From Oscillospiraceae bacterium (GTDB lineage Bacteria; Bacillota; Clostridia; Oscillospirales; Oscillospiraceae): a stretch of 64,000 nucleotides of DNA. Each line of letters starts with the position of its first letter. Position 1 is the stretch's first letter. The notes below the pieces were generated by a model that did no database searches, was not told where the DNA came from, and saw nothing but the letters and a program-made list of their open reading frames with translations. Below, piece by piece: positions 57,205 through 57,543 of the stretch. The stretch covers positions 7,847-71,846 of the forward strand of contig WRAK01000007.1 in assembly GCA_009780235.1 (NCBI GenBank), written 5' to 3'. The translations under genes were made by a program, and so were the position numbers.

Positions 57205-57543
57205 ATGTTTGATACAGTTGAAATAATTAAATCAAGCGAAATCCGCCAAAATCCAAATTTTCAACGTCCGTGTACTGTGATAGCTACGGCGCATGCCAAG
57301 ATTTATATGCCGCTAGAGGAGCTGGTAGATTTGCAATCTGAACATGAGCGGCTCACTAAGGAACTTGTAAAGGCGCAGGAGGGTTTGGAGCGGTAGCGGA
57401 AGAAGTTCTCAAACGAGGCGTTCGTGCAGAAGGCGAAAGAGCATGTCGTGGCCGCCGAGCGGGAGAAGGCGGAGCAGTTGGAGGCTTTGATTCGGAATTT
57501 GCAGGAGAGTTTGCGACAACTACGGGGAGGAACAACATTGTGA
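57205..57543 (+). pseudogene. fragment homologous to the C-terminal coiled-coil domain of valyl-tRNA synthetase, interrupted by an in-frame TAG
   Basis: IYMPLEELVDLQSEHERLTKELVKAQEGLER-TAG(57394-57396)-RKKFSNEAFVQKAKEHVVAAEREKAEQLEAL matches the ValS tail pattern (KLSNEGFV.KAP..VV..EREKL). Confidence 0.6.

Follow-up and report, generated by a model that had tools for sequence, protein, structure and literature searches.

A probably decaying, chimeric valyl-tRNA synthetase tail between terL and the portal gene of an Oscillospiraceae prophage

Introduction

The tRNA-binding arm of bacterial valyl-tRNA synthetase (ValRS, encoded by valS) is represented by the PF10458 family and by the structures PDB 1GAX and 1IVS, and in the ValRS-tRNA structure of Fukai et al. 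2000 this C-terminal arm reportedly touches the tRNA elbow. Accessory DNA lying between conserved phage core genes is described by the moron concept of Hendrix and colleagues, and classical morons are intact and independently expressed, with a promoter and a terminator of their own. The ends of essential host genes are also found with prophages at attachment sites, as in E. coli, where the 3' end of icd is duplicated at the attachment sites of phage 21 and of e14.

The locus described here, a short frame between terL and the following late gene of an Oscillospiraceae prophage, resembles each of these systems in part. It shares with the ValRS arm a nearly complete family profile, an alignment with the 1gax structure and a predicted two-helix hairpin that follows a beta-hairpin, and its 3' half is almost identical to the tail of the host enzyme, but it has no ValRS body, lies in a phage late operon, is chimeric and is interrupted by a TAG before the hairpin tip. 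Its moron-like traits are the position between terL and the portal gene, which are adjacent in a related phage, a composition unlike that of its surroundings, near identity to a host gene and the company of a mosaic accessory gene; unlike classical morons, it has a broken open reading frame (ORF), and neither a promoter nor a terminator was found around it. With the icd duplications of phage 21 and e14 it has in common that the 3' end of an essential gene stands alone in association with a prophage and is made up of an element-type and a host-type part, whereas it is located neither at a prophage end nor beside the integrase, no host flank follows it and valS is not the insertion site of the prophage. 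A search of the literature returned nothing directly relevant.

Results

A frame matching the tRNA-binding arm of ValRS

The frame spans positions 57205-57543 (plus strand) of the window, the whole 64,000-nucleotide stretch of DNA that was analysed, and consists of 113 codons, that is, 112 residues and the TGA at 57541-57543 that terminates the read-through form. Its architecture, read from the sequence and from the ORF list, is the one described in the earlier note: an ATG of its own (57205-57207) and, as the only internal stop, a single in-frame amber codon (TAG) at codon 64 (57394-57396). A GAGG resembling a Shine-Dalgarno (SD) motif is located at 57192-57195, with a spacer of 9 nt to the ATG. 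The start codon lies 15 nt past the terL stop, and terL and the ValS-tail frame share one reading frame. Within 55720-57207, only the TAA and five codons come between the two, and read-through of that TAA would give rise to a fusion of TerL with the ValS tail; the common reading frame, which has a chance expectation of 1 in 3, is probably accidental.

When read across the TAG, the frame matched PF10458 (Val_tRNA-synt_C) with 50.5 bits against a cut-off of 25.9 (E=2.5e-13), nearly end to end over positions 1-65 of the 66 in the profile. Scored alone, the part after the TAG passed the cut-off (30.1 bits) and the part before it failed (14.1 bits). Frame residues 20-105 aligned with residues 773-860 of Thermus thermophilus ValRS (PDB 1gax, E=0.003). 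Judged by the profile and by this alignment, we take the similarity of the frame to ValS to be real, in agreement with the coiled-coil assignment proposed earlier from the letters. The absence of an upstream catalytic domain was likewise borne out, since terL ends 15 nt before the ATG and no ValS catalytic domain was found 5' of the fragment; the class I catalytic, editing and anticodon-binding domains that precede the arm in a functional ValRS are thus missing, and the coding sequence under the PF10458 match is itself interrupted at codon 64.

A host-type 3' half joined to a diverged 5' half

The genome has a valS gene of its own on contig C13 (L003 1153-3819), which is intact, encodes 888 aa and has ordinary genes on either side and no integrase within 12 kb. 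The fragment aligned with this gene in frame and without gaps, and its similarity is concentrated in the 3' half (57370-57521, plus strand), a segment covering the end of helix 1, the hairpin tip and helix 2. In this block, 141 of 152 nt (93%) were identical to C13:38157-38308 within the host valS, including an exact run of 54 nt (57448-57501) common to the phage copy and the host gene, as compared with only 65-74% nucleotide identity for the valS genes of the same genus over the same 152 bp. Host valS was the best match of the block among 151 family genomes. The encoded protein segment was identical to host ValS at 49 of 51 residues, to ValS of the same genus at 32-40 of 51, and to that of other genera at 25-31 positions over 44-51 aligned columns.

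The 11 differences between this block and the host gene are distributed 3/0/8 over codon positions 1/2/3, and comprise seven or eight synonymous changes, two non-synonymous ones (L to F and E to Q) and one nonsense change. This distribution fits divergence between working valS alleles, to which the nonsense change would have been added later. The excess at third positions is also compatible with ongoing purifying selection on the phage copy, but is accounted for equally well by divergence between the donor and the present host allele.

Homology to valS stops at 57521, two codons short of the valS stop. The remaining 22 nt of the frame (57522-57543, plus strand) form a phage-specific tail that contains an SD motif (GGAGG, 57527-57531) and the GTG at 57540 with which the next gene starts, overlapping the TGA at 57541-57543 as GTGA. 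The same 3' junction is present in an independent JGI contig (L276).

The 5' half (57205-57369, plus strand), predicted to hold a beta-hairpin and most of helix 1, has a different relationship to the host gene. Nucleotide identity to host valS was 28% over 57205-57297, equivalent to none, and 41 of 72 nt (57%) over 57298-57369. Its GC content is 40-43% and its GC3 29-46%, versus a GC3 of 80% in the 3' block and of 73-76% in host valS. The encoded segment is still ValS-like, as BLASTP against host ValS matched residues 806-834 with E=1e-6 and alignments to some of the family ValS proteins extend to frame residue 5-8. At the protein level, this half scored 83-100 against ValS of other genera (the best being genome G004, with 23 identities in 49 positions and a score of 100) and 68-72 against the host and its congeners, so that ValS lineages rank in one order for the 5' half and in the reverse order for the 3' half. 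A donor of the 5' half was not found among 5.8 billion protein clusters searched with a length-matched chimeric query scored on its 5' part, and none of the family genomes matched it above 47% amino acid identity.

The step in nucleotide identity from 57% to 93% was significant (Fisher p=7e-10), and the maximum chi-square method placed a breakpoint at 57370 (permutation p<=1e-4). In a within-genus control, real valS pairs were 64-85% identical over the 5' segment and 61-75% over the 3' segment, without any step. Variation in substitution rate along valS, considered as a cause of the step, was ruled out by this control. Because the breakpoint, the within-genus control, the opposite rankings and the base composition agree, the fragment is a chimera of two ValS lineages, the 5' half of which is old, diverged, of lower GC and of a type other than that of the host genus. 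The earlier suggestion of a valS piece captured from host DNA therefore held for the 3' half, where comparison with the host gene supplied both the identity (93% over 57370-57521) and the breakpoint (57370), and missed the composite origin of the whole.

The in-frame TAG and its possible products

The codon in host valS that corresponds to the TAG at 57394-57396 is CAG (Gln), from which it differs by one C-to-T transition, which suggests that the stop arose after the host-type piece was acquired. Together with the close match of the 3' 152 bp to the host's own gene, this transition lent substance to the view, one of two offered in the earlier note, that the frame is captured host DNA in decay.

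TAG terminates seven other phage genes in the window, the portal gene among them, and in several cases the SD motif of the next gene follows directly; the other large phage ORFs are all open under translation table 11. The only tRNA in the window is a tRNA-Met, with no suppressor tRNA, and neither a tRNA with a CTA anticodon nor a pyrrolysine tRNA occurs among the 37 tRNAs of the 92%-complete metagenome-assembled genome. Recoding or suppression of TAG was rejected on the seven phage genes that end in this codon and on the lack of a suppressor tRNA in these sets; recoded phages combine many in-frame TAGs with a suppressor tRNA, and this phage has a single interrupted frame. TAG is thus an ordinary stop in the present phage.

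AlphaFold2 predicted, for the read-through form, a beta-hairpin (residues 23-36) followed by a helix (37-67), a turn (68-69) and a second helix (70-108), the two helices forming an antiparallel hairpin with block-mean pLDDT values of 93-96 in both. A Foldseek search of this model against the PDB gave no significant match, helical hairpins being uninformative in such a search. The TAG codon falls about four residues before the predicted turn, and hence the 63-aa product would be without the hairpin tip and helix 2; with the tip and the partner helix missing, it could not form the antiparallel coiled coil. With TAG read as stop, at most a 63-residue peptide would be made, consisting of a disordered N-terminus, the beta-hairpin and helix 1. 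Downstream of the TAG, a GTG at 57424 with a GAGG 5 nt upstream opens an ORF of 39 aa that corresponds to helix 2 of the coiled coil. Because host valS has the same GAGG, this motif probably came with the valS sequence rather than marking a genuine site of reinitiation.

A prophage with a variable slot between terL and portal

Host genes, namely alaS (7858-10491), a pyruvate carboxylase gene (pyc) and a YfhO gene, occupy the window up to approximately 27 kb. They are followed by an integrase gene (28096-28884, minus strand), located 29 kb from the ValS-tail fragment, and by a gene for a Cro/CI-type repressor (30393-31028, minus strand), after which come the early, DNA-modification and late genes. 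Since host genes and the integrase, repressor and phage genes lie on one contig, the element is an integrated prophage; it resides in the chromosome of the genome that holds valS, at a site other than valS.

The upstream neighbour of the fragment is terL (55720-57189; Terminase_6N) and its 3' neighbour is a gene with a Gly-rich domain (57540-58907, plus strand; PF21722, phrog_2295), which is followed by the portal gene (58825-60450). In one relative identified through TerL (L022), the core genes terL and portal are adjacent, an SPP1-type portal gene coming directly after terL with nothing between, and in another (L181) unrelated small ORFs occupy the gap over about 1 kb. The terL-portal slot is thus variable, and its 1.7-kb accessory insert in the present prophage is made up of the valS piece together with the Gly-rich gene. 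The latter carries an SD of its own (the GGAGG at 57527-57531) and is independent of the valS fragment.

The Gly-rich gene is itself a mosaic. Its C-terminal part (57809-58875, 1.07 kb) is 77% identical at the nucleotide level to a gene on contig C1 (C1:14753-15822), which belongs to the baseplate/tail-sheath module of another prophage-like element of the same genome. The approximately 90 N-terminal residues are unique and include a collagen-like GPPGPMGPPG, so that another mosaic junction falls near 57809. Other stretches of the prophage recur elsewhere in the genome at 79-96% nucleotide identity, on contig C14 (window 48441-48670, 47716-47789 and 49849-50036) and on contig C38 (window 38761-39095), indicating related prophages able to recombine with the present one.

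No sigma-70-like promoter and no plus-strand terminator were detected in 56800-57900. Rfam gave no family in the interval except the upstream tRNA, and RNA folding was not above shuffled controls (z=0.23).

Distribution of the fragment and support for its assembly

An identical 63-aa ORF was found beside terL in contigs from four samples (ENA ERZ27257297, SRR5215140, JGI 3300010369 and SRR10512952). These are nucleotide-identical, TAG included, and over 2.9 kb the JGI contig does not differ from the window. The occurrence of the same TAG in four samples shows that it is no sequencing error; because the four represent one identical clone, they carry no information on selection.

In a search of 5.8 billion clusters filtered for lengths of 62-196 aa, the only stand-alone homologue was this 63-aa ORF itself, and no intact 112-aa version appeared. 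PF10458 was detected in none of 50 TerL-related IMG/VR viral contigs, compared with 10 of 14 control genomes. The PHROGs collection has no small-protein family of this kind, its only match being the C-terminal end of a 903-position family, and the matches in phage GenBank records were to unannotated fragments or to bacterial valyl-tRNA synthetase records, all below 50% identity. A conserved phage gene family was rejected after these cluster, IMG/VR, PHROGs and phage GenBank searches. Retention of the fragment and its TAG, which the earlier note had proposed to check in related prophages, was seen in the single clone of the four samples and not among the TerL-related contigs. IMG/VR held no close relative of the prophage; across IMG/VR, metagenomes and GTDB genomes, TerL relatives reached at most about 48% amino acid identity over the full length, with no closer phage relatives. 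In the 142 family genomes with a match, the strong ones all lay at the 3' end of valS-sized frames, that is, frames that were full-length or cut by a contig end. A second, weak match resembling the ValS arm (E=1.2e-4) occurs in genome G019 (C6:3400-3639), in a 1073-aa open frame near valS, and may represent a comparable coiled coil in another class I synthetase.

Three of the four contigs break inside the run common to the phage copy and host valS, and the k=141 assembly alone bridges this run. The two Logan contigs stop after exactly 30 nt of the 54-nt run, as given by k-1 with k=31. In the JGI sample, the left contig ends at 57489 and the right one (L276) starts at 57475, leaving an overlap of 15 nt within the run; both bear phage-type variants, and the right one runs on through the SD motif into the Gly-rich gene. 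A second sample thus backs the arrangement on either side of the run, though it is spanned by the k=141 assembly only. The breaks show that the phage copy and host valS coexist in those samples. Breaks in the 57448-57501 run, seen in contigs L017, L019, L018 and L276 from three samples, are a textbook case of repeat-induced assembly break.

Discussion

The fragment is, in our view, likely to be a decaying remnant of a valS 3' end that has no function and is carried as passive cargo in the accessory slot between terL and portal. In the history that we propose, an ancestral phage would have acquired the last approximately 105 codons of valS from a lower-GC lineage outside the host genus, and the captured piece would have been a small late-operon ORF, equipped with an SD and ATG of its own and overlapping the next gene in a GTGA. 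Homologous or homeologous recombination (gene conversion) with valS of the host species may then have overwritten the 3' 152 bp, leaving the sharp junction at 57370. A later C-to-T transition would have turned CAG (Gln) into TAG, and the locus would now be decaying cargo. We infer this order of events, the direction of transfer (from host to phage) and the lack of function. The neat fit into the operon and the 5' half, which is open for 63 codons with its ValS motifs kept, suggest past expression of the ORF, from which a peptide might even now be made.

The alternatives nearest to these observations grant the locus a function. A working small gene might act through the 63-aa peptide, through a 112-aa product of low-level TAG read-through, or through two separately translated halves (63 aa and 39 aa) that pair into a stand-alone coiled coil of the ValS type, and this coiled coil would either bind to the elbow of tRNAs or interfere with host ValRS. 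The frame does have its own SD and ATG, its read-through form ends in the GTGA overlap, preserves the full profile of the tRNA-binding arm and is confidently predicted as a two-helix hairpin, and its differences from the host are biased towards third codon positions. Yet TAG is the stop of seven other phage genes, no suppressor tRNA was found, and a product ending at this stop lacks the hairpin tip as well as helix 2; moreover, the GAGG before GTG 57424 was already present in host valS and is inherited rather than evolved, no stand-alone homologue occurs in any collection searched and the neighbouring genes are not demonstrably tRNA-related. We therefore find such a gene very unlikely, and the deliberately retained tRNA-binding mini-protein that the earlier note had offered as its second possibility found no support, on the same points of the ordinary stop, the lack of a suppressor, the lost helix 2 and the lack of a free-standing relative. 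A residual or two-piece function of the locus is similarly hard to credit. About as doubtful is a bolder version, in which the ORF is, or until very recently was, a genuine accessory gene for a free-standing coiled coil that binds the tRNA elbow. Such a gene would be expressed alongside the late genes and, by recombining repeatedly with the valS of each new host, would stay matched to that host, and the TAG would be leaky, bypassed by the 63-aa product together with the 39-aa ORF (GTG 57424), or a very recent knockout. If this were true, a detached appendage of an aminoacyl-tRNA synthetase could sequester or mark tRNA-Val or disturb ValRS, and the use of a detached tRNA-binding arm by a phage would be a new kind of interference with translation.

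Other explanations dispense with a product. The fragment might be the fossil scar of an attachment site, left by an element that integrated at the 3' end of valS, where its own copy of the valS tail recombined with the host gene, as with phage 21 and e14 at icd, to give an attR-type hybrid that was later carried into the phage. The polarity is that of attR, foreign 5' and host 3' with a single sharp junction, and the fragment reaches nearly to the gene end, as att duplications of 3' ends do. The homology, however, ends two codons before the valS stop and lacks the host downstream DNA expected of attR, the fragment has a mid-operon position among the late genes and is 29 kb away from the integrase, host valS is intact between ordinary flanks with no integrase within 12 kb, and no family genome has an element at valS or a second valS tail; we regard this origin as decidedly unlikely. 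The DNA itself might be kept, either as a portable patch of host homology for RecA exchange or as a spacer or leader for translation of the Gly-rich gene. The breakpoint at 57370 attests to at least one past recombination with host valS, and the block of 152 bp at 93% identity includes the 54-nt exact run, which exceeds the usual minimal length for RecA-dependent recombination; the 3' end of the fragment also supplies the SD of the next gene. One past event is nevertheless no proof of selection for recombination, conservation was seen in no related phage, no promoter, terminator or RNA structure (z=0.23) accompanies a putative leader and the SD sits in the phage-specific tail, outside the valS-derived part, making retention of the DNA for either purpose highly improbable. 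Least credible of all is an artefact, be it an assembly chimera of phage and host valS reads or a sequencing error that created the TAG. It could draw on the breakage of three of the four contigs within the shared run and its spanning by the k=141 assembly alone, but the same sequence with its TAG was recovered from four samples, 11 sites differ from host valS and lie on both sides of the shared run, the left and right JGI contigs, which overlap by 15 nt, both carry phage-type variants, and phage genes lie on both flanks of the fragment.

A decaying, passively carried remnant, the explanation that we prefer, reveals no new function. It adds an example of a host-gene fragment in a phage accessory slot, and its two-layer recombination history is the sole notable point. 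The locus would be of value mainly as a clean and datable record of a prophage recombining with an essential host gene, showing that gene conversion can overwrite short patches of host homology in phages and that short-read assemblies break at predictable points in such patches.

A connection between the fragment and the tRNA-centred genes 3 kb upstream, which the earlier note had considered suggestive, is weak. One of these genes (54077-54601) encodes a 174-aa protein with a formyltransferase fold, which matches only positions 67-169 of the 181-position Formyl_trans_N profile and hits PHROG 9240. It is only 34% identical to the nearest host gene (on contig C10) and is therefore not a recent capture from the host. 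The tRNA-Met, the only tRNA in the window, is located at 54663-54738. The longest terS ORF, starting from a GTG at 54642, overlaps this tRNA gene; terS itself probably starts further downstream, and the protein called by JGI is 334 aa long as against 375 aa.
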